Origin: Eubacteriales bacterium
GTDB lineage: Bacteria > Bacillota > Clostridia > Oscillospirales > CAG-272
Assembly: GCA_045633005.1 (NCBI GenBank)
Contig: JAZQXT010000075.1
Coordinates: 20,441-84,440, forward strand
Length of the DNA stretch: 64,000 nt
Direction of reading: 5' to 3'
Shown: positions 15,769 to 64,000 of the stretch, one piece after another
Layout of the letters: every line of letters starts with the position of its first letter
Numbering within the stretch: position 1 is the stretch's first letter
The notes under the pieces: generated by a model
What the model saw: the letters and a program-made list of their open reading frames with translations, nothing else
Told to the model about the DNA's origin: nothing
Databases searched by the model: none
Made by a program: the position numbers and the translations under genes

Positions 15769-15781
15769 AAGAGGTCTGGAA

Positions 15782-17221: not shown

Positions 17222-17250
17222 TCAAAGACAAATATTTGGAGGAAGTTGAT

Positions 17251-19725: not shown

Positions 19726-19749
19726 TTTCCCGAAAGAGAAAAAGACTTA

Positions 19750-31979: not shown

Positions 31980-32055
31980 GATCCATTAGCTCAGACGGTA
32001 GAGCACTTGACTTTTAATCAAGGTGTCCGGAGTTCGAGTCTCCGATGGATCACCA
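31980..32055 (+). tRNA. tRNA-Lys (anticodon UUU), CCA encoded
   Basis: Cloverleaf folded by hand. Acceptor GATCCAT/ATGGATC. D arm GCTC-AGACGGTA-GAGC. Anticodon arm CTTGA-CTTTTAA-TCAAG. T arm CGGAG-TTCGAGT-CTCCG. Discriminator A plus CCA. Total 76 nt. Confidence 0.95.
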
Positions 32056-32092: not shown

Positions 32093-32290
32093 TGATCCAC
32101 GAGCGAACTCCGTCCGCAAGCTTGCTTGTAAGCGCCAAGACAAGGAAAACGCCGTTGGCGTTTTCAGTGAAATCCGACTTCGTCGGGTGAAATACGGCTT
32201 CGCCGTGTGAAATATTTGCCTTACGGCAAATGTGAAATATTTTGCTTCGCAAAATGTGAAGGTGGCTTTTTGCTTGCGCAAAAAGCATTT
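32093..32290 (+). repeat. Heptamer-punctuated hairpin array A (GTGAAAT x4 plus GTGAAGG)
   Basis: GTGAAAT occurs at 32167, 32187, 32207 and 32232, and GTGAAGG at 32256. Each is followed by a different short stem with a TTC/TTAC/TTGC loop: CCGAC-ttc-GTCGG, ACGGC-ttc-GCCGT, ATTTGCC-ttac-GGCAAAT, ATTTTGC-ttc-GCAAAAT, GCTTTTTGC-ttgc-GCAAAAAGC. AAAACGCC-gtt-GGCGTTTT (32147-32165) precedes them. Confidence 0.8.
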
Positions 32291-37724: not shown

Positions 37725-37738
37725 AAAGGAGATATAAA

Positions 37739-43037: not shown

Positions 43038-43057
43038 AAAGCACAGAGGTGTTTTTA

Positions 43058-47649: not shown

Positions 47650-48381
47650 ATGTCAAAAAGAGCCTTGATCATCATAGGAGCGATCATGCTTCTGCCGATA
47701 ATAGTTACCTTGTGTTTTTATATAAGCTATTGCGGCGATAATCCCGTTGTTGCAAGCTACGACGGAGACGTTACGCGAATATCGTATGGTGATAAAACGC
47801 TTATTGCCGTAGAAGGGGAAGAGAATTACAGGTTCAGATACGGCGAATATCTCGGAAAGATAGGCGATAGAAACTTCGGCCCGTCGCTTTATCGCGTGCT
47901 TGACGATGAGAGCGGATGCTATTACGCCGTCGCAGACCGTGACAAGAATCTGCTGTACACCGAGTCGGGCAAGCTTGAGGACGGTATGAAAACGGATAAT
48001 AGCACCGTAACGAGACTTGTTTTTGACAACTATTCGGTAAATATTGAAGGCGTTGACGCGCAAACCGTAAGCGATGCCTTTATCGGCGCGGGAGCAGAGG
48101 AGATCGAAATGAAGCCCTCGGCGTACCGTGACGAAAATCAAAATAAGCAATACCGTGTTTACGATATATGGGTGTCGTACGACGGATCTGCGGTGCTTAC
48201 GGAAAACGCGGGCAAGCTCTTTTATCTCACCGAGGAAAAGAGCTGGATATTCGTTCCCCTCGACGTGTACGAGGAGGGCGTGGAGAAGTACGGTGAGAAC
48301 AGCAGTAAGCTCGTTCTCAAATCTTACGTCGTTAAAGCACCTGCGGCACGACTAATACTCAGCGAATACATACCTAAATAA
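47650..48381 (+). CDS. Hypothetical membrane-anchored protein (243 aa)
   Basis: Single N-terminal TM helix (ALIIIGAIMLLPIIVTLCFYI). Last gene of the 44236-48381 operon, followed by a strong terminator. Confidence 0.6.
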   Translation: MSKRALIIIGAIMLLPIIVTLCFYISYCGDNPVVASYDGDVTRISYGDKTLIAVEGEENYRFRYGEYLGKIGDRNFGPSLYRVLDDESGCYYAVADRDKNLLYTESGKLEDGMKTDNSTVTRLVFDNYSVNIEGVDAQTVSDAFIGAGAEEIEMKPSAYRDENQNKQYRVYDIWVSYDGSAVLTENAGKLFYLTEEKSWIFVPLDVYEEGVEKYGENSSKLVLKSYVVKAPAARLILSEYIPK

Positions 48382-48906: not shown

Positions 48907-48935
48907 TTGACACTTTTTTCAGAATATGTTAATAT
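48907..48935 (+). promoter_or_regulatory. Sigma-A promoter TTGACA-17-(TGt)TAATAT for the 48999-62296 locus
   Basis: Hexamers at 48907-48912 and 48930-48935. Short 5'-UTR hairpin GCGGG-caaaat-CCCGC at 48958-48973. Confidence 0.6.
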
Positions 48936-48998: not shown

Positions 48999-51900
48999 AT
49001 GACAACAAAATTCCAAAGAATCGTAGCTCTCTTCCTTGCCGTCTGCACCATGATGGGTTGCTTTATGCTTACAGCATATGCCACCGAGTCGTCATCGACG
49101 ACAACGGGCAAGGGCTCCGTCACGAGTAACGCTATCGCAGACGCAGAGGAGCTACTCGATGCTATCACCTATGCAGAGTATCTTGCTTTGTACGGTGATG
49201 ACGCCATATATCCGGCGGGCACCGAAAGCATCGTTATCAATGGCGTTGACTATTATGCCGATAAGACTACGGCTGAAGTCAAGAAGGAAACCTTTGACGG
49301 CGTTGAGGGTCTGGTGACCCCCGAAAACGGCGAGGTTACTTGGAAGGTCAACGTTCCCAAGACGGGTAAGTATGCTATCAAGCTTACTTATTGGCCTGTT
49401 GAGGGTAAGCCCGCGGCTATTCAGCGCGAGTTTAAGATAAACGGCGCCGTTCCCTTCGTTGAGGCTTACTACATCACTCTCTCAAGAGTATGGAAGAACG
49501 TCTACGACGAGGCAAACAAGCACACCATTGCAACGGGTGACGAGCGTTATTTCCAGGCGGACTTCCTCGGAAACGAGATCAGACCGACTATGGTGACCGC
49601 TCCCGAATGGTGCGAGTATTCGCTTAAGGATATCGACGGCTTCTATCAGGATAGCTTTGAGTTCCTTTTCAATGAAGGTGAGAATACCATTACCCTTGAG
49701 GGTATAAGCCAGGCTATGGCTATTTCCACCATCGAGCTCTATCCTTACGAAGAGCCTATCTCTTACGATGAGTACATTAAAAAGTACGAGGGTCAGCCTA
49801 ACGGCACGGGCAAGGTAAAGTTTGAGGCGGAGATTCCCTTTAAGCTCTCCACCAACACCGTATACCCCGTTGAGGACCGCACCTCTGCACTCACCAGCCC
49901 CGTAGATGCATCCTGCACTCTGCTTAACACCCTCGGCGGTGAGAAGTGGCAGACCTCTGGTCAGTGGATAAGCTATCAGTTTACCGTTGATGCCAGCGGA
50001 ATGTACGAGATAACCTCGCGCTTCAGACAGGACATCAACGACGGTATGTATTCCTCTCGCGTACTTTATCTGTACAGCGATGACAGCGTTGCTTCGGGCG
50101 ACCTTGGATACTATAACGGCATTCCCTTCAGCGAGGCAAGAGAGCTTAGATTCAACTACTCCACGGATTGGCAGTCTGCTCCCCTTCAGTACGGCAAGAC
50201 CGTAGTAAAGGAGAACGGCGAGTCCACCGTAGAGCTTTGCGACACTAAATATTACTTTAAGGAAGGCGTTACCTACACCATGAAGCTTGAGGTATCCCTC
50301 GGCTCGATGGGTGAGGTCATAAGCGAGATCGAAAACTCCCTTACCATAATCAACAATGCTTACCTTAACATAATAAGACTTACCGGTTCTAACCCTGACG
50401 AGTATCGTGACTATTATTTCAGCGAGATAATGCCCGATACCATCATCAATATCATTCTTCAGGGCGAGAAGCTCAAGGCTATCGCAGATCAGCTCGCATC
50501 TCTTTCGGGCGAGACGGGATCTAACGTTGCTACTCTTCAGAAGATCGCACGTCTGCTTGAGAGAATGGGCTCCGACGAGGACGAGATAGCAAAGAACCTT
50601 GAGACCCTCAAGACCTATATCGGTACTCTCGGTACTTGGCTCAGCGACGCTAAGAGCCAGCCCCTCCAGCTCGACTACATCGTTATCCAGAGCGCAGAAG
50701 AGGAGCTTCCCGAGGGCGAGGCAGGCTTCTTTGCAGCACTTTGGCACGAGCTTAAGAGCTTCTTCTGGAGCTTCTTCCGCGATTACAACAATATGGGTGC
50801 ATCCGAGGAGACTATCTCGGGTAACGAGACCATCGAGGTCTGGATCGCAACCGGACGTGACCAGAGCCAGGTTCTCCGTAACCTTGTAAACAACGACTTT
50901 ACTCCCACTACGGGCATTCCCGTTAACCTCAAGCTCGTTGCGGCGAATACGCTTCTGCCTTCTATCTTGGCAGGAAGCGGACCTGATTCTTACCTCGGAC
51001 TCAGTGATAACGACGTTATCAACTACGCTATCCGTGGTGCACTCGCTCCCATCGAGAATTACGAGGGCTTTAACGAGGTCTCAACAACGCAGTTTAACGA
51101 GGCTGCAATGATGGTTCTTGGTATCGCAGACGCAAACGAGGTCATGCACTACTACGGACTTCCCGAGACGCAGACCTTCCCGATGATGTTCATCCGTACC
51201 GACATTCTTGCAAATCTCGGTATTGAAAAGCTTGATACTTGGGGAGACCTTCTCTCTGCGGCTACCGTTCTCAGCCAGAACAATATGACCATCGGTCTTT
51301 CCAACGACTATAAGATATTCCTCTATCAGATGGGCAGTGAGCTTTTTGCTGATAACGGAATGAGAGTCAACCTCGACTCCAACCTCGCACTTGATTCCTT
51401 TGAGACCATGTGCGATATGTTCACACAGTACTCCTTCCCCTATAAATTCGACTTTGCAAACCGCTTCCGTACGGGTGAGATGCCCATAGGTATCTCGGCG
51501 TATAACGCAACGTACAACCAGCTCATCGTATTTGCTACCGAGCTTCGCGGACTTTGGGAATTCGTTCCGCTGCCCGGTTATGAGTACGTTGATGAAAACG
51601 GCGAGACCAAGATCAACAACTGTTCCGTTTCTACGGTAACCGCAACCGTTCTTATCAACAACGACGGCGCAAATGCAGAGACGCTTCACAAGAACGCTTG
51701 GGAGTTTATGAAGTGGTATTCGGGCGCTGAGTGTCAGATCAACTACTCCAACGAGATGGTTGCTATCCTCGGTGACTCCGCAAAGCACGCTACCGCAAAC
51801 GTTACCGCGCTCGATTCGATGCCTTGGACCAACAAGGAATATACGAATCTCAGCGCTCAGTTTAAGAACCTTGCTTCTATTCCTAACTACCCCGGTACTT

Positions 51901-52406
51901 ACATCATTCAGCGTTACACTCAGTTCTCGTTCCTGTCTGCGTATAACGACAAGCTCGATCCCACTGATGACCTTCTCGGATATATTCCCGTTATAAATAA
52001 GGAAATATCTCGAAAGAGAGCAGAGTTCGGACTTGAGACCCTTGAGGTCGGTGAGACGCTGGCAAGCAAGCGTCAGTTTATGATACTTGCCGCACTCGGC
52101 GCACTCGACGGACACGGACTTACGAGCGCGGAGGAGGAAAGATATACTTCTCTCGTTACCGTTCTCAGCGACGCGGACAAGACGACCTACGCCGCAGAGA
52201 TAGAGGCACTTAAGAAGGCACTTTCGGATATTCCTTCGTACAGAGCTTATTGTGAGGACGTTTACATCGATGCCCTCAGAGCGGCGGGCGATGCTCTTGA
52301 AGCAGCAAACGCCGAGCTGTTCGGAAACATCTGCAAGTACATCGATGCTTGCGCTGACGCGCTTAAGTCATATCAGGCATCTTACCCTGCTCCCAAAAAG
52401 GGATAA
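48999..52406 (+). CDS. Giant secreted solute-binding protein: two beta-sandwich (CBM-like) modules + helical linker + family-1 SBP domain
   Basis: AGGAGG RBS. Signal peptide MTTKFQRIVALFLAVCTMMGCFMLTAYA. The SBP-like part reads ETIEVWIATGRDQSQVLRNLVNNDFTPTTGIPVNLKLVAANTLLPSILAGSGPDSY. It sits first in an operon with ABC permeases. Confidence 0.72.
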   Translation: MTTKFQRIVALFLAVCTMMGCFMLTAYATESSSTTTGKGSVTSNAIADAEELLDAITYAEYLALYGDDAIYPAGTESIVINGVDYYADKTTAEVKKETFDGVEGLVTPENGEVTWKVNVPKTGKYAIKLTYWPVEGKPAAIQREFKINGAVPFVEAYYITLSRVWKNVYDEANKHTIATGDERYFQADFLGNEIRPTMVTAPEWCEYSLKDIDGFYQDSFEFLFNEGENTITLEGISQAMAISTIELYPYEEPISYDEYIKKYEGQPNGTGKVKFEAEIPFKLSTNTVYPVEDRTSALTSPVDASCTLLNTLGGEKWQTSGQWISYQFTVDASGMYEITSRFRQDINDGMYSSRVLYLYSDDSVASGDLGYYNGIPFSEARELRFNYSTDWQSAPLQYGKTVVKENGESTVELCDTKYYFKEGVTYTMKLEVSLGSMGEVISEIENSLTIINNAYLNIIRLTGSNPDEYRDYYFSEIMPDTIINIILQGEKLKAIADQLASLSGETGSNVATLQKIARLLERMGSDEDEIAKNLETLKTYIGTLGTWLSDAKSQPLQLDYIVIQSAEEELPEGEAGFFAALWHELKSFFWSFFRDYNNMGASEETISGNETIEVWIATGRDQSQVLRNLVNNDFTPTTGIPVNLKLVAANTLLPSILAGSGPDSYLGLSDNDVINYAIRGALAPIENYEGFNEVSTTQFNEAAMMVLGIADANEVMHYYGLPETQTFPMMFIRTDILANLGIEKLDTWGDLLSAATVLSQNNMTIGLSNDYKIFLYQMGSELFADNGMRVNLDSNLALDSFETMCDMFTQYSFPYKFDFANRFRTGEMPIGISAYNATYNQLIVFATELRGLWEFVPLPGYEYVDENGETKINNCSVSTVTATVLINNDGANAETLHKNAWEFMKWYSGAECQINYSNEMVAILGDSAKHATANVTALDSMPWTNKEYTNLSAQFKNLASIPNYPGTYIIQRYTQFSFLSAYNDKLDPTDDLLGYIPVINKEISRKRAEFGLETLEVGETLASKRQFMILAALGALDGHGLTSAEEERYTSLVTVLSDADKTTYAAEIEALKKALSDIPSYRAYCEDVYIDALRAAGDALEAANAELFGNICKYIDACADALKSYQASYPAPKKG

Positions 52407-52445
52407 AGCATTGGATCTAAAATCAACGTAAGGAGAAACAAGTAC

Positions 52446-53393
52446 ATGTCAAGTAACACAGCAACAAAAAAGGCTGTATCCAGAAAAGATATGTCGCGCT
52501 GGCAGTGGACATGGAAAGAGATGAAGCGCAACTGGGTAGCGTACGTTATGATCGCTCCCTTCTGCATAGTCTTCACGCTCTTCACCGTGGCACCGGTTGT
52601 GGTCTCGCTTTTGATAAGCTTTACTGACTTTAACCTGATGCAGATCCCTAACATCGTGTGGCTGGATAACTACATTCGCCTTTTCCTTGATGACGATCTT
52701 TTCCTGACTGCCATCAAAAACACATTCATCTTCGCCGTGATCGTCGGTCCCGCTTCCTATTTGATGTCTCTTATGGTTGCGTGGTTCATCAACGAGCTTA
52801 GCCCCAAGATCCGTGCGATCGTAACCCTTATATTCTACGCTCCCTCCATTTCGGGTCAGGTATACCTTATTTGGGGTACGCTTTTCTCCAGTGACTCATA
52901 CGGCTGGGTAAACGCAACGCTCCTTGACCTTAACCTTATAAGTGAGGAAATAGCGTGGTTTGAAAACGCATCTTACATTATGCCGCTTTGTATCGTGGTT
53001 GCCCTTTGGACCTCGCTTGGAACCTCGTTCCTTAGCTTTATTGCAGGTCTTCAGGGTATTGACCGTTCAATGTACGAGGCGGGCGCGGTTGACGGTATCC
53101 GCAACCGTTGGCAGGAGCTTTGGTACATAACCCTGCCTTCCATGAAGCCGCAGCTGATGTTCGGTGCGGTCATGTCCATCACCAGCTCCTTCGGCTTCGG
53201 CGGAGTCGTTACCTCGCTCTGCGGATTCCCCTCCACCGACTATGCCGCATGGACCATTACTCACCACCTCGACGACTACGGAGGACAGCGTTTTGAGGTT
53301 GGATATTCTTCGGCAATAGCAGTTGTGCTTTTTGCCATCATGATCGGAGCCAACGGCTTGGTCAAGAAAGTCTTGTCAAAGGTAGGACAGTGA
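52446..53393 (+). CDS. Carbohydrate ABC transporter permease (MalF/CUT1 type), pair 1
   Basis: Six hydrophobic segments. EAA loop YEAGAVDGIRNRWQELWYITLPSMKP. Confidence 0.9.
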   Translation: MSSNTATKKAVSRKDMSRWQWTWKEMKRNWVAYVMIAPFCIVFTLFTVAPVVVSLLISFTDFNLMQIPNIVWLDNYIRLFLDDDLFLTAIKNTFIFAVIVGPASYLMSLMVAWFINELSPKIRAIVTLIFYAPSISGQVYLIWGTLFSSDSYGWVNATLLDLNLISEEIAWFENASYIMPLCIVVALWTSLGTSFLSFIAGLQGIDRSMYEAGAVDGIRNRWQELWYITLPSMKPQLMFGAVMSITSSFGFGGVVTSLCGFPSTDYAAWTITHHLDDYGGQRFEVGYSSAIAVVLFAIMIGANGLVKKVLSKVGQ

Positions 53394-53394
53394 T

Positions 53395-54270
53395 ATGGCA
53401 AAGAAATTAAGAACCAGAAAGCATAAAGTCGTTCTTAACCGTTCAGCCGGTGGCGACGCAGGTATCACTTTCATCCTTTTCATTCTCGGCATATTTATGT
53501 TCCTCCCTATGTTTTACGTTATCATGCAGTCTCTCAAGCCTCTTGATGAGCTCTGGATGTTCCCGCCGAGATTTACCGTTTCCAACCCCACGTTCTCCAA
53601 CTTCGGTGATCTGTTCACCCTTATGAACACCTCTTGGGTACCCTTCTCACGTTACATATTCAACACCGTATTCGTGGCTGTAACGGGTACTATAGGAAAC
53701 CTGTTCTTCGGCTCTCTTGCCGCATACGCACTCGCAAAGATCGCGTTCCCCGGCGGAAAGACGATATTCAAAACGATCCGTATGTCGCTGATGTTCCATC
53801 AGACCGTTACGCAGATCACGAACTTCATCATCATGAGTGCTCTCGGCATGCTTGATACCCAGTGGGCTATCATCATTCCCGCATGGGGCTCTACTCTCGG
53901 TCTTTACCTGATGAAGCAGTTTATGGAGACCAACGTTCCCAACACCGTTCTTGAGTCTTCAAGACTTGACGGTGCGAGCGAGCTTAAGACCTTCTGGGTC
54001 ATCGCAATGCCTATGGTTAAGCCCGGTTGGCTTACTCTTATCGTTTACTGTTTCCAGAACCTTTGGAACTCCGGCTCCTCGATCTACATTCACTCCGAGC
54101 AGCTCAAGTCATTCAACTACGCGATCGGTCAGATCACCGCGGGCGGTATCAAGCGTGCGGGTGCATCTGCGGCTGCAACCGTTGTAATGATGATGGTTCC
54201 TATCATGGTATTCGTTATCACCCAGTCGAACATCATCGAAACGATGGGTTCGAGTGGTATGAAGGACTAA
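53395..54270 (+). CDS. Carbohydrate ABC transporter permease (MalG/CUT1 type), pair 1
   Basis: EAA loop LESSRLDGASELKTFWVIAMPMVKP. It starts 1 nt after the upstream stop. Confidence 0.9.
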   Translation: MAKKLRTRKHKVVLNRSAGGDAGITFILFILGIFMFLPMFYVIMQSLKPLDELWMFPPRFTVSNPTFSNFGDLFTLMNTSWVPFSRYIFNTVFVAVTGTIGNLFFGSLAAYALAKIAFPGGKTIFKTIRMSLMFHQTVTQITNFIIMSALGMLDTQWAIIIPAWGSTLGLYLMKQFMETNVPNTVLESSRLDGASELKTFWVIAMPMVKPGWLTLIVYCFQNLWNSGSSIYIHSEQLKSFNYAIGQITAGGIKRAGASAAATVVMMMVPIMVFVITQSNIIETMGSSGMKD

Positions 54271-54282
54271 GGAGGTTGTGTA

Positions 54283-56421
54283 ATGAAGAGATTTATTAGC
54301 ATTATCGCCTTGGTTTTCGCGCTTGTTATGATTTTTGCAGTTCCTGCAAGTGCATTCAAGCCCTATCAGACCTATACCTACTCGATCGACGGCTTTGCGC
54401 TCCACTCTCCCGATGCGTATACTCCCGTAAGAACGGTAGATTCCGCGTATATGGGACTTGAAGTACCCTTTGACGAGCCCCGTGATATCGTTGTCGATGA
54501 AAGCGATAACGTTTATCTCGTTGACTCAAAGAACGACAGAGTTGTAGTTCTCGATAAGTACTTCAAATTCAAATTCGACGTAGATACCTTCGTAAACGAG
54601 CAGGGAGTTGACGACTGCCTGAACAATCCTAACGGCGTGTTCGTAAAGAACGGCGTTATGTACGTTTGCGATACCGACAACGCTCGTATCGTTACCTTTG
54701 ACACTAACGGTAATTTCCTTCGCATCATAGCAGAGCCCGAAAGCTCCCTCTTTGACGAAGGCTCGGCTTATATGCCCATTGCCGTTGCGGTTGACGATTA
54801 CGGCAAGCTCTACGTAGTATCTATGTCCAACTACGAGGGCGTCATCGTTATGGACTACGACGGCGAGTTCATCTGCTTCGTAGGCGCTCAGAAGGTTTCT
54901 CTTACCGCTTGGGAAAAGATCTGGAGAATGTTCCAGACCGACGAGCAGAGAGAGCTCAGCGAAGCAAACATTTCTACAACTTATAATAATATCACAATTG
55001 ATGCGGACGGCTTCATTTATATCACCACCGACGGTATAGACGAGGACGACCAGTATAGCGCTATGACGGGTAAGGATAAGTCGGGCGACTTTGCTCCCGT
55101 TAAGAAGCTCAACCCCGCAGGCGACGAGGTCATGGCGAGAAACGGCTTCTGGCCTCCCTCCGGAGAGCTTGATATATCCCTTACCACCGCAGACGGCTCG
55201 ACGGCAGTTGGTGCTTCGAAGATCGTTGACGTAGCGGTAGGACCCGAGAAGACTTGGTCCATCATCGACGAGAAGAGAAGTAAGATATTCACCTACGACG
55301 AGCAGGGTAACCTCTTGTTCGCATTCGGTGATTTCGGCTCACAGCTCGGAAACCTTGAGAACATCGAGGGTATATGCTACATGAGCGACGGAATGCTTCT
55401 CGTTCTTGACAAAATACTTGATAATATCACCGTTTACCAGAGAACGGAATACGGCGATATCATTATTCAGGCTCTCGCAAATCAGAACTCCCGTCAGTAC
55501 GACAGAGCTATTGACGACTGGTTTGAGATCCTTAAGAGAAACTCCAACTTCGACGCCGCTTATATAGGAATCGGTGATGCGTACTACCGTAACGGTGAGT
55601 ATGAGCTTGCACAGGATTACTACAAGGCAGCGTACGATACTGAGGGTTGGTCCAAGGCATACGCCGAGATCCGTAAGGAATGGATCGGTAAGTACGTATG
55701 GACTGTTCCGATCTTCATAGTTGCAGTAGTTCTCATCGTTTCCAAGCTGTTCAAGAAGGCGGCTAAGGTCAACAAGCACGCGGCTACCGCAGGCGGCAAG
55801 CGTACCTTCGTTGAGGAGCTCGTTTACGGCTTCCACCTTATCTTCCACCCATTCGACGGCTTCTGGGATCTGAAGCACGAAAAACGCGGTTCTCTCCGCG
55901 CCGCGCTGGTTTATCTGGTAGTTACGGTATTCGTATTCTTCTATCAGGCTATCGGCTCGGGTTACCTTGTAAATCCCTATGAGAACCAGTCCTCGGTATT
56001 CGTCCACATTCTCGGAGTTCTTCTCCCCATAATGCTTTGGGTAATATCCAACTGGTGTCTTACCACTCTGTTTGAGGGTGAGGGAAGCCTTAAGGACATC
56101 TTTATTGCGTGCTGCTATGCACTGCTTCCCATAGTTCTCATCTTCATCCCCACTACTATCGCTTCTAACTTCGTACTTCTTGAGGAGCTTGATCTTGTCA
56201 ACGTTCTCAACTCGTTTGCGTTCATTTGGGCAGGACTCTTGATCTTCTCGGGTATGATGATAACTCACGACTACACCGTGAGCAAAAACTTCGTTACCGT
56301 GCTTGGTACGCTTATAGCTATGGTATTTGTAATGTTCGTTGCTATTCTGTTTACAACTCTCGTTGCAAAGATCGTAAGCTTTATTGCCAACATCGTTACC
56401 GAGATCGGCTATCGCTTATAA
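54283..56421 (+). CDS. Fusion protein: signal peptide + NHL-repeat beta-propeller + TPR + C-terminal 5-TM Yip1-like domain
   Basis: NHL-like blades (PRDIVVDESDNVYLVDSKNDRVVVLD, PNGVFVKNGVMYVCDTDNARIVTFD, PIAVAVDDYGKLYVVS, IEGICYMSDGMLLVLD). TPR (IGIGDAYYRNGEYELAQDYYKAAYD). Then multiple TM helices with a Yip1-like layout. Confidence 0.65.
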   Translation: MKRFISIIALVFALVMIFAVPASAFKPYQTYTYSIDGFALHSPDAYTPVRTVDSAYMGLEVPFDEPRDIVVDESDNVYLVDSKNDRVVVLDKYFKFKFDVDTFVNEQGVDDCLNNPNGVFVKNGVMYVCDTDNARIVTFDTNGNFLRIIAEPESSLFDEGSAYMPIAVAVDDYGKLYVVSMSNYEGVIVMDYDGEFICFVGAQKVSLTAWEKIWRMFQTDEQRELSEANISTTYNNITIDADGFIYITTDGIDEDDQYSAMTGKDKSGDFAPVKKLNPAGDEVMARNGFWPPSGELDISLTTADGSTAVGASKIVDVAVGPEKTWSIIDEKRSKIFTYDEQGNLLFAFGDFGSQLGNLENIEGICYMSDGMLLVLDKILDNITVYQRTEYGDIIIQALANQNSRQYDRAIDDWFEILKRNSNFDAAYIGIGDAYYRNGEYELAQDYYKAAYDTEGWSKAYAEIRKEWIGKYVWTVPIFIVAVVLIVSKLFKKAAKVNKHAATAGGKRTFVEELVYGFHLIFHPFDGFWDLKHEKRGSLRAALVYLVVTVFVFFYQAIGSGYLVNPYENQSSVFVHILGVLLPIMLWVISNWCLTTLFEGEGSLKDIFIACCYALLPIVLIFIPTTIASNFVLLEELDLVNVLNSFAFIWAGLLIFSGMMITHDYTVSKNFVTVLGTLIAMVFVMFVAILFTTLVAKIVSFIANIVTEIGYRL

Positions 56422-56438
56422 CGGCAGGAGGATAAAAA

Positions 56439-59400
56439 ATGAATAAGATGAATAGAATTATTGCATTGATTCTGACTGTCGTAATGCTTATCGGAACTCT
56501 TATGCTTGAAGTCGGAGCGGCTACCGCTGTCGATATCATCTATGAAGAGGATGAGAACGGCAAGGCTACCGATATTATCGATTACGAGAAAACGGTTGCT
56601 CAGTACCTCACGCTTGAGTTCGAAACACCTCAGCAGAAGCTTGCTACCATGACTAAGATGGTAGAGAGAGACGGATATCAGCTTTGGGTCGATGATTTTA
56701 CGGGCGAAGTTGCTACCGTAAACGTTGAAACGGGCGAGATCCTTTTCTCCAACCCCTACGACGTAGCTACCACCGGTACTACGGCGACGAGAGCTGAGAT
56801 CATGTCTCAGATCATCGTTACCTATATGGATAACGATGCTAAGAAGAAGATGAACAGCTTCGTTGATGCCGCACAGCGCGGACAGATCACCGTAAAGCAT
56901 ATCAAGAACGGTGTCAGAGTTGAGTACAGCATCGGTCGTGAGGACGCGAGAATGCTCGTTCCCAGACTTATCGAGAAGGAAAGATTCGAGACCAAGATAC
57001 TTGATCCCTTTGCGGCTGAGATAAATGCAGTTTCCGAAGAGCAGGGACTTCCCGTCAAGGAGTGGAGAGATTACCACTACGATCTTACCCTCCGCGATAA
57101 GATAAGACAGGAATCTAAGAACCAGCTCTGGCATAACTTCAATATGCTCAGAAACTTCTACACTTACCATGAAATGGGCTCTACGGGCGGTGACCAGCAC
57201 GTTTCCAAGGTAATAAACTCCATGGGCGTTTACTACTTTGAGACCAACACCAACCTCACCCAGCTCAGCAAGGTAGAGAACCTTATTAAGACCTACGTTC
57301 CTTCCTACACCTACGAGGATCTTGAGGCTGACCATACCAAGACTCAGTACGTAAGCGCAGACCTCATTCCTCCCGTATTCAAGATGGCTCTTGAGTATAC
57401 TCTTGACAAGTGGGGCGTCAGCGTTTGCATGCCTGCAAACGGACTTCGCTTCAACGAGTCCATCTACCAGCTTGAGAACATCAGCGTTCTTCCTTATATG
57501 GGAGCTGGCGCAAACTACGTAGGCGATGATAAGACTGACGTTATCACAGGCTACAACTTCTTCCCCGATGGCTCAGGAACGCTCTTCCGTCACGAGGACC
57601 TTGCAGGTAGCGTTGCTACCGCCGTTTCGGGTAAGGTATACGGTCAGGATTACGCATACAACACCATTATCGGTTCACATCAGGAAATTATCAGATACCC
57701 CGTATTCGGTATAGTTTCCAACGATGCCTACTATAACAGAACCTACGAGGAGCAGCTCGTTGAAAAGCCCGTTCTTGATGAAGAGGGCAACGAGAAGAAG
57801 GATGAAAACGGAAACGTTATCACCGAGCAGGTTAAGGAAATGGTAGAGGTCGGCTCCGAAAGAGTTGATCAGGACCGCGGCTTCGTTGCTATCATTGAAG
57901 AGGGTGACGCACTTGCCGAGCTTTCCACGTATCACGCAGGATCGCTTTCCAAGTACAACGCCGTAAATATGCTCTTCAGCCCCAGACCTAAGGATACCTA
58001 CAACCTTGCAAACGCTATCTCCGTTGGTGCAAATGCATCTTGGACCGTAGTTTCCTCCCGTAAGTACACGGGCAACTACACCATCCGTTACATTATGCTT
58101 ACCGACGATGCTACCGCAAAGTCAAAGGGAATAACCGACTACTATGAAACCAGCTGGATGGGTATGGCAGAGGCTTACCGCGATTATCTCTACGAAGCAG
58201 GTAATCTCGACGCCCTTGATGCAAACGAGATCAAGGAAGATATCCCCGTATACATCCAGACGTTCGGTGCTCTCGAGACTATCGAGAAGTACCTTTCCAT
58301 CCCCGTAAACGTAATGACTCCTCTCACCTCGTTTGAGGATATCAAGACCATGCATAGCGAGCTCGCCGCTGAGGGCGTATCGAACGTTAAGTTCAAGCTT
58401 ACGGGTTATGCAAACGGCGGTATGTATTCAAGCATGCCCTCCGATCTTGATTGGGAGAGTGCAGTAGGTGGCAAGGACGGATACGAAGAGCTTCTGGCTT
58501 ATGCAAATGCAAACGGCTTTGAGCTGTTCCCCGACTTCAACTTCGCTTACGTAAGATCGATGGAGGACTCCATCTTTGATAGCTTCGTGTTCAGCAAGCA
58601 CCTCGTTAAGTCCATTAACGATACGTATATGTCCAAGAGATATTACAGCGCAACGAGACAGACCTACATCGGTCGTTTTGAGCTTGCCGTATCTCCCGCA
58701 TATTACGCAAACTTCTATGAAGAGCTTGCCGCAAATCTTCTTGAATCCTATGCAGACGGAATGCCCACCGCGATCTCGGTAGGCACTCTCGGAACGGAGC
58801 TTAACTCCGACTTTGACGAGGATGAGCCTTACAACCGTGAGGACTCCAAGTCTCAGACCGTCTCTATCTTTGAGAAGATCGACAAGGACTTCAATTCCGT
58901 AATGACCGACGGAGCAAACGTTTATACTTGGAAGTACATCGACCATATCGTAAACGTATCTCTCGACTCCAGCCGTTACATCAAGTCAAGCGCAGCCGTA
59001 CCCTTTATCGGTGTTGTTCTTCACGGTAGCAGACAGTTCGCAGGAACTCCTCTTAATATGGAAGGAAACATCGGCTATAGCTTCTTGAAGGCTATTGAAA
59101 ACGGTGCAAGCCTTAACTTCACTCTTTGCTATCAGAACTATGATGAGTTCAAGGAGTATATGGACCTTAGCGAATACTATTCCGTACGTTACGACATCCT
59201 TAAGAGCGAGGTAGTTGAGTACTACACGCTTCTCAACAGCCTTACCAAGGATCTTCAGCTTTCCAAGATAGTAGCTCACGAATTCCTTATCGGCGAACGT
59301 GTTCCCGATGAGGATGAGAAGGCTGCTGACGAGGAACAGGCTAAGAAGGAAGAGGCAGAGAAGGAAGCAGCCGAGACGGAAGCCGCTGAAAAGGCATATC

Positions 59401-60185
59401 AGGCTGCTATCAACCACGGTAGAACCGTAGCTCTTGCCGAGATCAGCAAGGCTCTCGCTACCATTACCGAGAGAACTCAGACTACTAAGAACTATTCCGA
59501 AACCCTTCGCGGACTGCTTGATCAGCTCGTAGCACTCGAGTCCGGAACTCCCGCAGATCCCGAGACTCCCGCAGTAGACGCTACTACTCCCGCTGCTGAA
59601 ACGACCGATGAGGAAGCAGCCGCTGCAAAGGAAAAGCTGCTCAAGGATATCGACGGATACCTTTCCTCGATTCAGGCAAACAACGCAATGCTCAACGATG
59701 AGTTTGCAATAGCTAAGAAGGCAAACGCCAACGTAATTCTTGCTTACGAGCACTACGTTACCAAGAATGCCGAGGGCTTCTCTCAGGCGTTCAAGGATGA
59801 CGTTACCGCAAGCTACAACGGTGTAACCTCTGCTTATGCAAATATCGCTACTCAGGTAACCGAAGCTTACGCCGCAGCATCCGCAGTATTTGAGGAGGCT
59901 AAGGCTATCCTTGGTGAGCTTAAGTACGTTCTCGTTGATCCTAATGCCGAGCCTGAAAAGGAAGAGGAGAAGGATGACGACGACGGCTACAACTACACCA
60001 AGTACACCGACGATAACGACAACATCGTTCGCGTCGAGTACGAAAACGGCGTATTCTTCATTCTTAACTTCAACTACTTCGACGTAACCGTTAAATACAA
60101 CGGTCAGGAGTACACCATCGCAAACTACGGTGGAATCAGAGTAAACGCAGACGGCACGACAACTGCTTTTGCCGTAAATAATTAA
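56439..60185 (+). CDS. 1248-aa secreted/anchored protein of unknown function (recalled as DUF5696-type)
   Basis: AGGAGG RBS. N-terminal hydrophobic signal/anchor (IIALILTVVMLIGTLMLEVGAA). Long globular region. Acidic coiled-coil segment (DEDEKAADEEQAKKEEAEKEAAETEAAEKA, ~59307-59400). Asp-rich stretch (EEEKDDDDGYNYTKYTDDNDN). No catalytic motif I can name. Confidence 0.6.
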   Translation: MNKMNRIIALILTVVMLIGTLMLEVGAATAVDIIYEEDENGKATDIIDYEKTVAQYLTLEFETPQQKLATMTKMVERDGYQLWVDDFTGEVATVNVETGEILFSNPYDVATTGTTATRAEIMSQIIVTYMDNDAKKKMNSFVDAAQRGQITVKHIKNGVRVEYSIGREDARMLVPRLIEKERFETKILDPFAAEINAVSEEQGLPVKEWRDYHYDLTLRDKIRQESKNQLWHNFNMLRNFYTYHEMGSTGGDQHVSKVINSMGVYYFETNTNLTQLSKVENLIKTYVPSYTYEDLEADHTKTQYVSADLIPPVFKMALEYTLDKWGVSVCMPANGLRFNESIYQLENISVLPYMGAGANYVGDDKTDVITGYNFFPDGSGTLFRHEDLAGSVATAVSGKVYGQDYAYNTIIGSHQEIIRYPVFGIVSNDAYYNRTYEEQLVEKPVLDEEGNEKKDENGNVITEQVKEMVEVGSERVDQDRGFVAIIEEGDALAELSTYHAGSLSKYNAVNMLFSPRPKDTYNLANAISVGANASWTVVSSRKYTGNYTIRYIMLTDDATAKSKGITDYYETSWMGMAEAYRDYLYEAGNLDALDANEIKEDIPVYIQTFGALETIEKYLSIPVNVMTPLTSFEDIKTMHSELAAEGVSNVKFKLTGYANGGMYSSMPSDLDWESAVGGKDGYEELLAYANANGFELFPDFNFAYVRSMEDSIFDSFVFSKHLVKSINDTYMSKRYYSATRQTYIGRFELAVSPAYYANFYEELAANLLESYADGMPTAISVGTLGTELNSDFDEDEPYNREDSKSQTVSIFEKIDKDFNSVMTDGANVYTWKYIDHIVNVSLDSSRYIKSSAAVPFIGVVLHGSRQFAGTPLNMEGNIGYSFLKAIENGASLNFTLCYQNYDEFKEYMDLSEYYSVRYDILKSEVVEYYTLLNSLTKDLQLSKIVAHEFLIGERVPDEDEKAADEEQAKKEEAEKEAAETEAAEKAYQAAINHGRTVALAEISKALATITERTQTTKNYSETLRGLLDQLVALESGTPADPETPAVDATTPAAETTDEEAAAAKEKLLKDIDGYLSSIQANNAMLNDEFAIAKKANANVILAYEHYVTKNAEGFSQAFKDDVTASYNGVTSAYANIATQVTEAYAAASAVFEEAKAILGELKYVLVDPNAEPEKEEEKDDDDGYNYTKYTDDNDNIVRVEYENGVFFILNFNYFDVTVKYNGQEYTIANYGGIRVNADGTTTAFAVNN

Positions 60186-60199
60186 GGAGGTGCAGAACA

Positions 60200-61174
60200 G
60201 TGACTAACGATTTGGAACTGAAAAACACCGCGAGTGTTCCCCAGAAGAAAACTAAAAAGAAACGCGCTGCATCTCTTGATAAGCGCAAGGCGCGTGCGGG
60301 CTGGTGGTTCGTAATGCCCTTCGTGCTCGGATTCTTTATCGTATACGTTCCGATCATATTTGACTCGCTGGTATACAGCTTCAGTACGGTCGAGTATACC
60401 GATTTCGGTCCTGTAACGCATTTTGTCGGATTTGAAAATTATAGCTACGCTATCTTCTCAGACCCCGACTTTGCACAGACTCTGGTTACGGGTATGCAAG
60501 AGCTTATCTTTGACGTTCCCGCGATCATTCTGTTCTCTCTGTTTATGGCAGTTCTTCTTAACCAGAAGATGGTCGGACGTGCAGCGTTCCGCGCGATCTT
60601 CTTCGTTCCCGTTATAGTTTCTACGGGATTGTTTGAAACCATAAACGCGTCAAACCTTATGGAAGAAAGTATGGAAAGCGTTGACGGTATCGCAAGCGGC
60701 ACGGGTTCAAGTGCGGCAAGCCAGATCGTCTCGGCGGTCGATATAGCGTTGCTCTTCCAAAGCATGAAGGTCGGAACGGGTCTTGTACTCTATGTTACCG
60801 AGATGATCAATAACATCTACGACATAGTAAACCGTTCGGGCGTACAGATGCTTATCTTCCTTGCGGGTCTGCAGTCTATCTCTCCCGCAATTTACGAGTC
60901 CTGTCAGATAGACGGTGCAACGGGATGGGAGACCTTCTGGAAGATCACCTTCCCGATGATCAGCCCGATGATCCTCGTTAACGCCGTTTACACCGTAATC
61001 GACTCGTTTACAACCAATTCCAACACGGTTATGAGCTTTATCTCAAAAACCTACAACACTCAGAAAGAGCTCAGCGCGGCTATGTCTTGGATATACTTCT
61101 CGCTGATAATTCTGATCATCGCGGTAGTGGCGGGTATCTGTTCGGCATTCGTCTTCTACCAGCGCAGAGATTAA
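60200..61174 (+). CDS. Carbohydrate ABC transporter permease (MalF type), pair 2
   Basis: GTG start 6 nt after AAGGAGGTG. EAA loop YESCQIDGATGWETFWKITFPMISP. Confidence 0.85.
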   Translation: MTNDLELKNTASVPQKKTKKKRAASLDKRKARAGWWFVMPFVLGFFIVYVPIIFDSLVYSFSTVEYTDFGPVTHFVGFENYSYAIFSDPDFAQTLVTGMQELIFDVPAIILFSLFMAVLLNQKMVGRAAFRAIFFVPVIVSTGLFETINASNLMEESMESVDGIASGTGSSAASQIVSAVDIALLFQSMKVGTGLVLYVTEMINNIYDIVNRSGVQMLIFLAGLQSISPAIYESCQIDGATGWETFWKITFPMISPMILVNAVYTVIDSFTTNSNTVMSFISKTYNTQKELSAAMSWIYFSLIILIIAVVAGICSAFVFYQRRD

Positions 61175-61192
61175 TGAAAGGAGGACAAAATA

Positions 61193-62296
61193 ATGAATGC
61201 ACAGCAAACTGCTCCTGTCATTAAGAAGGAATCTAAAAACAAGATAAAGGTCGAGTTTGAAAGAACTCCTCTTAAGGAACGTCTCAAGGCGAAATTCGTC
61301 AACGCGGCGTTTGTGGGAAGTATCATTTGGTACATCATCCGCCTTGCACTCCTTCTTGGTATCGCGTATATCATTTTGTTCCCCTTCTATACGAAGATCG
61401 CAGGCTCCTTCATGGGTCCTAACGATTTCGTAGACGTTACCGTAATGCTTATCCCGAAGGACTTCTCGCTTGATATGTACAAGTACATACTTCTTGAGAA
61501 CAACTACTTCGAGGCATTCGGAAACACTCTGTTCCTTGCCGCTTCTACGGCACTCGTACAGACTCTTACCTGCTCGCTTATCGCTTACGGTCTTGCAAAG
61601 TTCAAATTCAAGGGCTCGACCTTCGTGTTCGCCGCCGTTGTATTTACGATGGTCGTACCGCATAGCGCACTGCAGATGTCGCTGTTTATGAACTTCCGAT
61701 ATTTTGACATATTCGGAATAGTAAAACTGCTTTCGGGACACGTTATTGAGGGAATTCAGATCTTTGATCCCAATAGCACCAGCCTGTTTATAAAGAATGC
61801 CGCCGCTGACGGTGCGCTGAACCTTATGAACACCAACTGGCCGCTTATGATCCTCTCCTTTACGGGTCTTGCGTTCAAGAACGGTCTGTTCATCTTCCTG
61901 CTTCGCCAGTTCTTCCGCGGAGTGCCTGATGAGCTTGAAGAATCCGCATACATCGACGGATCGGGCGTTTTCCGCACCTTCGTGCGAATCATTCTGCCTC
62001 TGTCCATACCGATGATGATAACGGTATTCTTGTTCTCGTTCTCTTGGCAGTGGACTGACGACTTCTACACGGGTCTGTTCTTCACGAACAACAAGACGGT
62101 GCTTATGTCCAACATTTACAGCACTATCCCGAAGACGCTCAGCCAGCAGTTCAACGGTTATGCAGGATGGAACCTCTATTCCTCCGCTATCCGTAACACC
62201 AGCGGTCTCCTTATTATGATTCCTCTGGTAATCATGTTCCTCTTCTGCCAGAAGTTCCTGGTACAAGGTATCGAACGTTCCGGTATTACCGGTTAA
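61193..62296 (+). CDS. Carbohydrate ABC transporter permease (MalG type, extended N-terminus), pair 2
   Basis: AAAGGAGG RBS. EAA loop EESAYIDGSGVFRTFVRIILPLSIP. At 367 aa it is longer than typical MalG-type permeases. Confidence 0.85.
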   Translation: MNAQQTAPVIKKESKNKIKVEFERTPLKERLKAKFVNAAFVGSIIWYIIRLALLLGIAYIILFPFYTKIAGSFMGPNDFVDVTVMLIPKDFSLDMYKYILLENNYFEAFGNTLFLAASTALVQTLTCSLIAYGLAKFKFKGSTFVFAAVVFTMVVPHSALQMSLFMNFRYFDIFGIVKLLSGHVIEGIQIFDPNSTSLFIKNAAADGALNLMNTNWPLMILSFTGLAFKNGLFIFLLRQFFRGVPDELEESAYIDGSGVFRTFVRIILPLSIPMMITVFLFSFSWQWTDDFYTGLFFTNNKTVLMSNIYSTIPKTLSQQFNGYAGWNLYSSAIRNTSGLLIMIPLVIMFLFCQKFLVQGIERSGITG

Positions 62297-62303
62297 TAAA
62301 CAA

Positions 62304-62327
62304 GGGTCTGCGCAAAAGCGCAGACCC
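62304..62327 (-). terminator. Hairpin GGGTCTGCGC-aaaa-GCGCAGACCC, the second hairpin met by alaS transcription
   Basis: 10-bp perfect stem. On the minus strand it is followed by TTGTTTATT. Confidence 0.55.
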
Positions 62328-62343
62328 TACGTTTATATAAAGT

Positions 62344-62378
62344 AAGGCTCAAATGCTTTCGCATTTGAGCCTTTTTTA
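62344..62378 (+). terminator. Intrinsic terminator ending the 48999-62296 locus
   Basis: AAGGCTCAAATGC-tttc-GCATTTGAGCCTT followed by TTTTT. It abuts the alaS stop codon at 62379. Confidence 0.75.
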
Positions 62379-64000
62379 TTATTTAAGCATACCCGCAAGC
62401 GTTGCTTGGGCAAGTGCGAGAGCCTCGTCTATCTTGGAGGCGTCAGCGCCGCCTGCCATAGCGTTGTCGGGGCGTCCGCCGCCCTTTCCGCCCGTTACGG
62501 CGGCAACTGCGCTTACAAGCTTTCCTGCGTGTGCGCCAGCCTTTGCGGCATCAGCACCGCATACGGCGATGAAGTTGAGCTTTTCACCGTTGACGGCGAT
62601 AACGGCTACGGTGTCGGGGTGGTTTGCCTTTATCTCGTCTGCAAGAGAACGAGCGACCTCTATCGCCATACCGTCAAAGCGAACGGCGGCGAGCTTTACA
62701 GAACCTATTTGCTTTGTGTTAGCGAGAATTGAGTCAAGCTTGGTAGCCGCGAGCTTGGAGTTAAGGCTGTCTATTTCTCTGCGTGCGCTTGCAAGCTCGG
62801 CGGAGAGAGCAGCCGCCTTTGTGCCGATATCAGCGGGATTCTGGCACTTAAGCTCACGCGCAACGTCGGCGATAAGTGCGTCCTTCTCATTCAGAAGATC
62901 AAGCAGACCTGCGCCCGTAACAGCCTCGATGCGACGAACACCTGCGGCAACGGAGGACTCGGAAATGATCTTGAAAAGACCGATCTCGCCCGTGTTGGAG
63001 CAATGCGTACCACCGCAAAGCTCGGTGGAGAACGTTCCCATTTTAACCATACGAACTACCTTGCCGTATTTTTCGCCAAAGAGCGCGATAGCGCCGTTTG
63101 CCTTTGCGGTCTCAACGTCGGTCTCAACCATTTCTATCTTCAGCGCGCTGAGGATGCAGGAGTTTACGAACAGCTCAACTGCGGCAAGCTCCTTCTTGGT
63201 AAGCGGCTGGAAGTGCGAGAAGTCAAAGCGGCAAACGGTATTGCTGACGTAAGAGCCGGCCTGCTCAACGTGGTTGCCGAGAACCTTGCGAAGCGCCGCC
63301 TGAAGCAGATGCGCGGCAGAGTGGTTGCGAGCGATGGAACGGCGGCGGGTGTCGTTTATGTCAGCGACAACGCTCTCGCCAACGCTGAACGTTCCGTTGA
63401 TAACGGTGCAAAGGTGAATGTAAACACCGTCGGATTTCTTCGTGTCGTAAACGTTTATAAGCTTGCCCTCGGCGTAGATAGTGCCCGCGTCGCCTATCTG
63501 TCCGCCGCCCTCGCCATAGAAGGGGGTTCGGTCAAGGATGATAGTGCAATCGCCCTCGTTGACGGAGTCAACGGAGTCGTCGCCGACGAGGATGGCAAGT
63601 ATCTTTGCTTCGGAGCGATAGTCGGTATATCCCGTAAACTCGGTCTTGGCAAGCTCGGAAATGAGGGACTTTGACGTGGAGCTCCAACCGCTGATATTAG
63701 CGCGAGCCTCGCGCGCGCGGTTCTTCTGACGGGTCATAAGAGCGTTGAAGGTGTCCTCGTCAATGGAAAGCTTGCTTTCCTCTGCAATCTCGCGGGTGAG
63801 GTCGATGGGGAAGCCGAAGGTATCGTAAAGCTTAAATACCTCCTCGCCCGAGATGGTGTCGGCGTTGCTGTCAAGTGCGCCGCGGATGAGGTTGGTGAGG
63901 ATGGAAAGACCTGCATCAATAGTAGCGTCAAAGCGCTCCTCCTCGATGGAAAGTACCTTCTTTATATAATCTGCACGCTCGGAAAGCTCGGTGTAAGCGC
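62379..64000 (-). CDS. alaS: Alanine--tRNA ligase, C-terminal ~540 aa (5' end outside window)
   Basis: The frame is continuous upstream of the ORF-track Met at 63737 (...VFKLYDTFGFPIDLTREIAEESKLSIDEDTFNALMTRQKNRAREAR...). Editing-domain HSAAHLL and CGGTHC motifs. C-terminal DHHA1-like GGKGGGRPDNAMAGG. Confidence 0.95.
   Translation of the reverse strand, partial: AYTELSERADYIKKVLSIEEERFDATIDAGLSILTNLIRGALDSNADTISGEEVFKLYDTFGFPIDLTREIAEESKLSIDEDTFNALMTRQKNRAREARANISGWSSTSKSLISELAKTEFTGYTDYRSEAKILAILVGDDSVDSVNEGDCTIILDRTPFYGEGGGQIGDAGTIYAEGKLINVYDTKKSDGVYIHLCTVINGTFSVGESVVADINDTRRRSIARNHSAAHLLQAALRKVLGNHVEQAGSYVSNTVCRFDFSHFQPLTKKELAAVELFVNSCILSALKIEMVETDVETAKANGAIALFGEKYGKVVRMVKMGTFSTELCGGTHCSNTGEIGLFKIISESSVAAGVRRIEAVTGAGLLDLLNEKDALIADVARELKCQNPADIGTKAAALSAELASARREIDSLNSKLAATKLDSILANTKQIGSVKLAAVRFDGMAIEVARSLADEIKANHPDTVAVIAVNGEKLNFIAVCGADAAKAGAHAGKLVSAVAAVTGGKGGGRPDNAMAGGADASKIDEALALAQATLAGMLK

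Follow-up and report, generated by a model that had tools for sequence, protein, structure and literature searches.

A 64,000-nucleotide stretch of contig JAZQXT010000075.1 from a Eubacteriales bacterium (assembly GCA_045633005.1, positions 20,441 to 84,440; hereafter the window) carries seven plus-strand genes, g1 to g7 (48999-62296), encoding an oversized solute-binding protein (SBP) (g1), two pairs of MalF/MalG-type ATP-binding cassette (ABC) permeases (g2/g3 and g6/g7), a membrane protein with propeller, TPR, and Yip1 domains (g4), and a large secreted DUF5696 protein (g5). The operon is probably an undescribed variant of glycan uptake machine, and we put at about even the prospect that it is a surface apparatus for the capture and import of glycans or oligosaccharides, built on two CUT1-type translocons. 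The evidence lies in the conservation of the genes as a set, in the SBP and permease families represented, and in g5: comparison of predicted folds and of profiles places DUF5696 in the GH101/GH129 superfamily of glycoside hydrolases (GHs), with the catalytic nucleophile of that superfamily lost in g5 and its orthologues.

Related loci were collected by a genome scan (32 loci, from metagenome-assembled genomes [MAGs] of uncultured Clostridia, Eubacteriales, and Oscillospiraceae from ruminant, horse, and other guts) and by a metagenome scan with the core profile (80 loci, from human gut, rumen, and bioreactors), giving 112 in total; the patterns came from this clade, and the collection covers it rather than distant DUF5696 proteins outside the cassette. 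Every contig with room for the cassette carries g1 to g7 complete and in identical order and orientation (41 of 41 in the metagenome set), and all truncated contigs are compatible with that order, with no exception among the 112 loci. Synteny persists where g5 and g1 have fallen to 33-40% identity, all parts of the cassette are under purifying selection, and each contig examined carries one copy. Assemblies from ruminant, horse, and human guts and from anaerobic digesters commonly contain the cassette, which is confined to uncultured genomes of the Clostridia/Oscillospiraceae type. Judged by gene order, the seven genes are one co-inherited unit; a preliminary description of this DNA had staked its proposal on the co-conservation of these genes in related genomes, and co-conservation is what was found.

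Fold and active-site region of the DUF5696 protein

The preliminary description had named the 1,248-residue product of g5 as a DUF5696 protein, and Pfam confirms this (PF18952; 405.5 bits versus a gathering threshold of 25.6; E = 5e-121). It had also treated the protein as an orphan with no nameable motif in a locus with no hydrolase, and that view has to be abandoned: g5 is a homologue of GH129 enzymes and, by way of these, of GH101 enzymes, though one without their catalytic residues. In Foldseek searches, the AlphaFold2 (AF2) model of residues 49 to 1248 (predicted local distance difference test [pLDDT], 80.6; predicted template modeling score [pTM], 0.71) matched the GH129-like 3,6-anhydro-D-galactosidase DagB of Zobellia (5opq/8rzk; E = 3e-20) and the α-N-acetylgalactosaminidase NagBb (5wzn; E = 1.6e-14), with target-normalized template modeling (TM) scores of ∼0.65. 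GH101 endo-α-N-acetylgalactosaminidases were matched with E values of 1e-8 to 1e-11 but TM scores of only 0.25-0.31, and GH13 enzymes came next. At the profile level, hhalign aligned the DUF5696 core with a profile of 58 GH129 sequences over 352 columns (98.9% probability; E = 3.2e-17).

The relationship is also evident from the GH129 side. A 131-residue stretch of NagBb scores 36.2 bits against DUF5696, above the gathering threshold, and full-length GH129-family proteins match DUF5696, Glyco_hydro_129, DUF6259, and Glyco_hydro_101 over the same region. For the NagBb-type GH129 proteins P0250, P0255, P0308, P0346, and P0386, DUF5696 outscores Glyco_hydro_129, and some match DUF5696 only; the DUF5696 label therefore hides a family with a crystallized and characterized enzyme. 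The link to GH101 runs via GH129 proteins that match both models; g5 itself gives no match to PF12905 (GH101) even at an E value of 10. DagB consists of an N-terminal β-sandwich, a TIM barrel, and a C-terminal immunoglobulin (Ig)-like domain (PMC5698469), and the predicted architecture of g5, a β-sandwich region, a (β/α)8 barrel, and a C-terminal Ig-like domain, is the same.

When the Protein Data Bank (PDB) was searched with the single g5 sequence and with its full-length profile, the matches were no more than coiled-coil noise due to the helical insertion; a profile limited to the core reached NagBb marginally (E = 0.22), and the NagBb fragment used as bait in an indexed protein search retrieved short fragments only. 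The register between g5 and GH129 was settled only with the 58-sequence GH129 profile. An hhalign comparison of the DUF5696 core with a single GH129 fragment, which aligned only β2-α2, was rejected, as was a forced global alignment that had zero confidence and a misleading register.

Unlike GH129 proteins, g5 and its orthologues carry a helical insertion of 200-1000 residues and are obligatorily linked to an ABC importer operon. In g5 itself the insertion separates the barrel from the C-terminal β-sandwich, and its ∼200 residues are modeled as a pair of long helical hairpins. Orthologues of 1,480-2,117 residues have up to ∼1,000 residues of Ala/Glu/Lys-rich helix at this point, with no Pfam domain, and the acidic linker and C-terminal β-sandwich that follow are conserved. 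Across the orthologues, g5 thus has a constant body with an arm whose length varies in the manner of surface stalk proteins.

The two catalytic positions of GH129 correspond in g5 to Ser780 and Asp824 (Table 1). The GH129 motif YLDVF aligns with ISVGT of g5 in hhalign, with agreement from MAFFT, which puts Ser780 at the end of the predicted strand β4. The nucleophile position is Asp in 56 of 58 GH129 sequences, whereas in g5 it is Ser (105 loci) or Ala (6 loci) and never Asp or Glu in 111 loci; Ser also occupies it in 53 of the 54 members of the protein set. Similarly, the GH129 acid/base position (SS-E-E) is Glu in 55 of 58 sequences, whereas that of g5 is unconserved (Asp in 38, Glu in 37, Ser in 22, and other residues in 14 of the 111 loci). 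Within the superfamily, the acid/base residue differs between NagBb and DagB, while the nucleophile is retained in both (NagBb D435 and DagB D486) (PMC5698469). Absence of an equivalent of NagBb E478 is the weaker criterion by itself, since DagB also lacks it (PMC5698469), and it is because the nucleophile kept by both NagBb and DagB is lost that we do not call g5 a hydrolase. D699 (D651 of the model) was considered as a substitute nucleophile and rejected, as it aligns with GH129 Asp371 on β3 and not with D435.

The remainder of the GH129 pocket is also much altered. In P0250 numbering, H324, D326, H370, E448, C449, H454, and D525 are replaced in g5, while D371, R458, and H524 are kept, R800 of g5 being aligned with the conserved Arg458. 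An acidic loop that is new relative to GH129 follows β4, and its NSDFD, P, Y, R, and final D (NSDFD…PYNR.D) are essentially invariant in the 111 loci. At its C-terminal face the barrel displays D699, D791, D793, D802, N827, D835, H862, and E887, all invariant in the clade. Such strong conservation of the pocket indicates a functional site, whether that of an enzyme or that of a binder. The sequence comparison suggests that g5 would be one of two things: an enzyme whose catalytic residues have moved, or a glycosidase fold turned into a binding module. We give a re-tooled enzyme slightly less than an even chance and regard a noncatalytic binder as a substantial, somewhat smaller possibility; there is a small residual likelihood that g5 is something else.

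The binding protein, the Yip1 protein, and the two permease pairs

g1 matches Pfam SBP_bac_8 (residues 634 to 918; E = 2.7e-11) and also SBP_bac_1, and its PDB profile match is Lin1841 (E = 1.6e-11). The AF2 model (pLDDT, 83; pTM, 0.77) resembles the CUT1 oligosaccharide SBPs 5ci5, 9xf5, and 5ysb and MalE in Foldseek (E values of 1e-13 to 1e-15; TM scores of 0.72-0.79), and these structural relatives include binders of sophoro-oligosaccharides and cyclo-isomalto-oligosaccharides. As modeled, g1 is a complete MalE-like oligosaccharide-binding fold behind two β-sandwiches and a helical bundle. The preliminary description of g1 as two carbohydrate-binding module (CBM)-like modules fused to a family-1 SBP is thus borne out for the SBP and for the β-sandwiches. 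The CBM assignment does not carry over: matches to CBM35 and Golvesin_C are subthreshold only in g1 and eight orthologues (Pfam), for which reason the modules are not called CBMs here, and "CBM-like" describes only their fold.

In its length of 1,135 residues, its two β-sandwiches, helical bundle, and helical tail, and its lack of a lipid anchor, g1 is unlike the SBPs of known CUT1 systems. Orthologues of g1 have Sec signal peptides with AxA-type cleavage; a lipobox is present in 12 of 51 and is not conserved, and none of 53 g5 orthologues has one. Lack of a lipobox is unusual among Gram-positive binding proteins, and the absence of lipoboxes from both g1 and g5 implies some other tether.

The NHL, TPR, and Yip1-like composition originally proposed for the 712-residue product of g4 is confirmed by Pfam for all three domains, and the PDB matches of g4 are to six-bladed NHL propellers (Thin, TRIM71, and PknD) and consensus TPRs. 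The whole length of the protein is conserved, most strongly at residues 521 to 540, and its gene always lies between the two permease pairs (112 loci). Its sequence predicts that the NHL propeller and the TPR lie outside the membrane, in which the Yip1 bundle is embedded. There is a precedent for Yip1 proteins as ABC accessory factors in YknW, which modulates assembly of YknXYZ (PMC4887032). Like YknW in Bacillus YknWXYZ, g4 is a Yip1-domain membrane protein encoded with an ABC transporter and, by analogy, probably aids its assembly (PMC4887032). YknW is small, however, and serves a MacB-type exporter, whereas g4 is encoded with permeases of type I importers and bears a large NHL propeller and a TPR on the outside of the cell.

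Pfam PF00528 (BPD_transp_1) is matched above threshold in g2, g3, g6, and g7, and the four EAA loops are intact, as had been read from the translations. The best NCBIfam matches of the permeases, to UgpA/E, MalF/G, and GlcT/U, are weak. Across loci, g2 is 60-84% identical. Within the operon, g6 is only ∼25% identical to g2 and g7 is ∼21% identical to g3; at this level of identity, the second permease pair is an old paralogue rather than a recent duplicate. The sequences thus describe two anciently diverged MalF/MalG-type pairs (g2/g3 and g6/g7), each with EAA loops predicted to be intact for coupling to an ATPase.

No open reading frame (ORF) with the LSGGQ/E signature of ABC ATPases was found in the 64-kb window, and no ATPase is conserved in the flanks of the 112 loci. 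The lack of an ATPase gene had been correctly observed, but it is no anomaly: in Bacillus, Streptococcus, and other Firmicutes, CUT1 importers are commonly energized by a shared MsmX/MsmK ATPase whose gene lies elsewhere, and its absence from the locus is therefore ordinary (PMC7658222, PMC5730181, PMC4519317). In this respect, and in its MalF/MalG-type permease sets with EAA loops and its MalE-like family-1 SBP, the locus resembles the Firmicutes CUT1 importers MalEFG, MsmEFG, and UgpABE (PMC7658222). It departs from the layout of one SBP with one permease heterodimer, as there is one SBP for four permease genes (two pairs), invariantly in the 112 loci, and it is further unlike CUT1 systems in the extra large conserved components g4 and g5 and in having no regulator.

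Putative transcription signals and genomic neighborhood

The coordinates and tight spacing first given for the operon were reproduced exactly: the seven ORFs are separated by 39, 1, 12, 17, 14, and 18 nt, in order (1-40 nt had been reported), and each is preceded by a strong ribosome-binding site of the AGGAGG type (Shine-Dalgarno [SD]). The near-consensus promoter described upstream of g1 corresponds to a promoter-like site, the top of 21 such matches in 16.5 kb. Because ∼17 such matches are expected in shuffled sequence, the consensus scan by itself is thin proof of a promoter at this position. The two closest relatives (L002 and L004) share the site without change; farther loci have other leaders, in which it is not conserved. 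No internal promoter above chance was found in the g1-g7 region, and a weak terminator-like hairpin lies within g4. The terminator reported after the last gene is represented by two GC-rich hairpins before alaS, with TTTTATTATT after the second of them on the plus strand.

The 5′ untranslated region (5′-UTR) of g1 contains a stem-loop that recurs in position rather than in sequence: in most of 39 distinct orthologous leaders a GC-rich stem-loop plus CAAAAA lies 12-20 nt before the g1 SD, and the stem sequences are unrelated. It may be a 5′ mRNA stabilizer or the binding site of a regulator. The stem-loop matches no Rfam family, and no riboswitch or known leader was detected by Rfam in the window, in the 5′ leader, or in six related loci. 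Five more distant loci (L005, L008, L010, L011, and L025) share an element, TATAAATTTTATGGCATTTTGCCG, ∼300 nt upstream of g1; their leader of ∼280 nt is absent from the window and has no Rfam match at the gathering threshold.

Table 1. Features of the operon and its borders in the window (nt, nucleotide positions; aa, amino acid residues)
Feature	Position (nt)	Position (aa)	Strand	Basis or remark
Promoter-like site, sigma-70 type	48907-48935		+	TTGACA-17 nt-TAATAT plus TG extension; 10/12 consensus match
5′-UTR stem-loop	48958-48973		+	gcggg-caaaat-cccgc, then AAAAAC and SD; hairpin upstream of g1
g1, secreted SBP with N-terminal extension, 1,135 aa	48999-52406		+	Pfam SBP_bac_8; AF2/Foldseek
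g1 Sec signal peptide		1-28
g1 β-sandwich A	49230-49742	78-248	+	AF2
g1 β-sandwich B	49815-50297	273-433	+	AF2
g1 four-helix bundle	50307-50654	437-552	+	AF2
g1 MalE-like SBP fold	50667-52028	557-1010	+	AF2
g1 helical tail	52059-52382	1021-1128	+	AF2
g2, MalF/UgpA-type ABC permease, 315 aa	52446-53393		+	BPD_transp_1; EAA loop EAGAVDG
g3, MalG/UgpE-type ABC permease, 291 aa	53395-54270		+	BPD_transp_1; EAA loop ESSRLDG
g4, membrane protein, 712 aa	54283-56421		+	Pfam NHL/SBBP, TPR, and Yip1
g4 signal peptide, then NHL β-propeller	54370-55422	∼30-380	+	NHL, E = 4e-9
g4 TPR	55471-55662	397-460	+	Pfam
g4 transmembrane helix		472-490		Transmembrane profile
g4 Yip1 domain, five transmembrane segments	55834-56340	518-686	+	PF04893, 56 bits, E = 4.9e-15; five hydrophobic segments
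g5, secreted DUF5696 protein, 1,248 aa	56439-60185		+	GH129/GH101 homologue
g5 signal peptide		1-28
g5 N-terminal β-sandwich region	56652-58073	∼72-545	+	AF2
g5 (β/α)8 barrel	58077-59282	547-948	+	AF2
g5 Ser780 codon	58776-58778	780	+	Aligned with GH129 nucleophile Asp (NagBb D435); hhalign, MAFFT
g5 acidic loop	58803-58844	789-802	+	N789-S-D791-F-D793-E-D-E-P797-Y-N-R800-E-D802; directly after β4
g5 Asp824 codon	58908-58910	824	+	Aligned with GH129 acid/base Glu (NagBb E478); hhalign
g5 helical hairpin insertion	59310-59912	958-1158	+	AF2
g5 C-terminal β-sandwich	60024-60173	1196-1245	+	AF2
g6, second MalF-type ABC permease, 324 aa	60200-61174		+	GTG start; EAA loop ESCQIDG
g7, second MalG-type ABC permease, 367 aa	61193-62296		+	Extra loop at ∼aa 177-217; EAA loop ESAYIDG
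Two GC-rich hairpins	62303-62373			62303-62328 and 62344-62373; between operon and convergent alaS
alaS, C-terminal part	62379-63737		−	Convergent with operon

The cassette is flanked in the window by plsY, a methyltransferase gene, and two Pfam-less ORFs upstream and by alaS downstream. Beyond these, the window consists of core chromosome, with a glycogen operon and ligA among its genes. Flanking genes vary by lineage. Those that recur are alaS and spoIIIAA, in the closer relatives, and, in 19 of the 53 loci whose upstream sequence is long enough, a divergent gene of the ROK family (∼320 residues) that lies ∼0.9 kb upstream from the cassette (e.g., L001:936-1898, minus strand). As the ROK protein has no helix-turn-helix domain, it is probably a sugar kinase. 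The window has a ROK gene at 37721-38701 (+), 10 kb from the cassette. The Pfam-less ORFs immediately upstream of the operon (46511-47629 and 47650-48381, both +) encode 372 and 243 residues, respectively, and the 243-residue ORF recurs in 7-8 related loci, again upstream of the cassette.

Several other features of the window and of the locus collection were recorded. The glycogen cluster (11423-21669, +) encodes a GlgB-like branching enzyme, GlgC-type nucleotidyl transferase(s), a GlgA-type starch synthase, glycogen phosphorylase, and a GH13 α-amylase-family protein. A Gut-1 RNA (RF01706; 57 bits versus a gathering threshold of 50) at 32141-32218 (+) lies directly downstream of tRNA-Lys(UUU) (31980-32055). 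An ORF at 7163-8842 (+) contains both the N-terminal domain and the CN-hydrolase domain of apolipoprotein N-acyltransferase (Lnt), an enzyme that, to our knowledge, is not expected in most Firmicutes. Genes for an NFACT/RqcH-type ribosome quality-control protein (40745-42514, +) and an Mbeg1-like lipase-fold protein (43049-44134, +) lie upstream of plsY. Among the related loci, L021 (JAGARL010000319.1) is filed as a Methanocorpusculum sp. MAG; its identities and scores to the seven proteins are the same as those of the Oscillospiraceae contig L020, and it is therefore almost certainly a misbinned bacterial contig.

Proposed function, alternatives, and significance

A capture-and-import apparatus could work as follows. 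g5 would engage a polymeric, probably α-linked glycan, either cleaving it via relocated residues (the D791/D793 loop and D835) or only holding it, and g1 would deliver the oligosaccharide that results to one translocon or to both. Import would draw on ATP hydrolysis by a shared ATPase of the MsmX/MsmK type encoded elsewhere. By analogy with YknW, g4 probably holds g1 and g5, neither of which has a lipid or wall anchor, at the membrane and may serve as a scaffold for the translocons. From the ancestry of the g5 fold alone, a weak guide, the substrate may be α-linked and galacto-configured. A more elaborate version, in which two type I translocons sit on the propeller-TPR-Yip1 scaffold as an ABC importer supercomplex, fed by a nonlipidated, CBM-bearing SBP and a long-armed, GH129-derived protein that lacks the catalytic dyad, would be a Gram-positive counterpart of Sus-like systems that harvest glycans at the cell surface. 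A glycosidase fold would in that case have become a glycan-handling subunit or one with a new catalytic mechanism; we consider this version doubtful.

Of the glycan capture, processing, and import machine first suggested for this locus, what survives is a single conserved unit that combines CUT1 parts with large extracytoplasmic proteins; what falls away is the argument from a missing ATPase and from orphan proteins in a locus with no hydrolase. The absence of a regulator was correctly reported, and none is conserved in the flanks. Several observations weigh against a role in glycan uptake. We know of no characterized precedent for one SBP serving two translocons. Flank clustering, with 32 and then 112 loci, found no canonical GH, regulator, or catabolic gene conserved beside the cassette, and the neighbors are housekeeping genes (alaS, spoIIIAA, and plsY), unlike those of typical inducible sugar loci. 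The substituted nucleophile and unconserved acid/base position of g5 and the subthreshold CBM matches of g1 count in the same direction.

Known surface systems offer a partial parallel. Like Gram-positive polysaccharide utilization loci (gpPULs) and the GNB/LNB-type systems of Bifidobacterium, which pair a surface GH101/GH129 enzyme with an ABC importer, the cassette of this gut bacterium combines a surface protein of probable glycan activity with an SBP-dependent importer. It differs from both in its housekeeping neighborhood and in having no regulator, canonical GH, or cytoplasmic catabolic enzymes in the locus. Of the elements that define a gpPUL, the cassette thus has the transporter and no regulator, and its sole enzyme candidate, g5, is without canonical catalytic residues.

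If g5 were a fully active GH of a new GH129-derived family, the locus would be an ordinary gpPUL in which the second permease pair imports a second product. Homology to GH129 and GH101, the dense array of invariant acidic and polar side chains at the C-terminal barrel face, and the mobility of the acid/base residue in the superfamily, where DagB keeps only the nucleophile of NagBb (PMC5698469), would all suit such an enzyme. Yet characterized GH129 and GH101 enzymes all keep the β4 Asp, which is Ser or Ala in 111 of 111 loci here, most GH129 pocket residues are replaced, and the regulator that belongs to the usual definition of a gpPUL is missing; we consider this explanation unlikely. The cassette might instead serve the envelope of its own cell, recycling or remodeling a self-made surface polysaccharide, capsule, or spore glycan, with g5 and the propeller working on that polymer and the importers retrieving fragments. 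Neighbors with housekeeping and sporulation functions (alaS, spoIIIAA, and plsY), the lack of co-conserved regulators and catabolic enzymes, the retention of the cassette as a single copy per examined contig across the whole lineage, and the length-variable, stalk-like arm of g5 fit such a role. Against this, no matching glycosyltransferase or exporter lies beside the cassette in the window or flanks, the nearest structural relatives of the g1 SBP bind dietary or microbial oligosaccharides, and the ROK kinase-like neighbor in a third of loci fits catabolism, and we judge an envelope function to be improbable, to the same degree as a fully active GH.

That two unrelated importers and two unrelated surface proteins have been juxtaposed by chance is effectively refuted. 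The permease pairs are indeed only 21-25% identical to each other, and a weak terminator-like hairpin lies inside g4, but synteny in 112 loci, with order and orientation unchanged even at 33-40% identity of g5 and g1 while the flanks change, excludes it, and neither the gaps of 1-39 nt nor the promoter scan of the interior, in which nothing was stronger than chance, suggests separate units.

If the proposed capture-and-import function is correct, it would provide a functional context and a place in the GH101/GH129 superfamily for DUF5696, a family for which our literature search found no publication, either under that name or as PF18952 or for the seven-gene set. g5 would then be a test case for the re-tooling of a retaining glycosidase fold after loss of its nucleophile. 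If active, it would become the first member of a new CAZy family, one whose partner transporter is defined. The architecture accepted for Gram-positive type I importers would also be widened by a sugar importer that combines two ABC translocons with a scaffold subunit and an SBP lacking an anchor.

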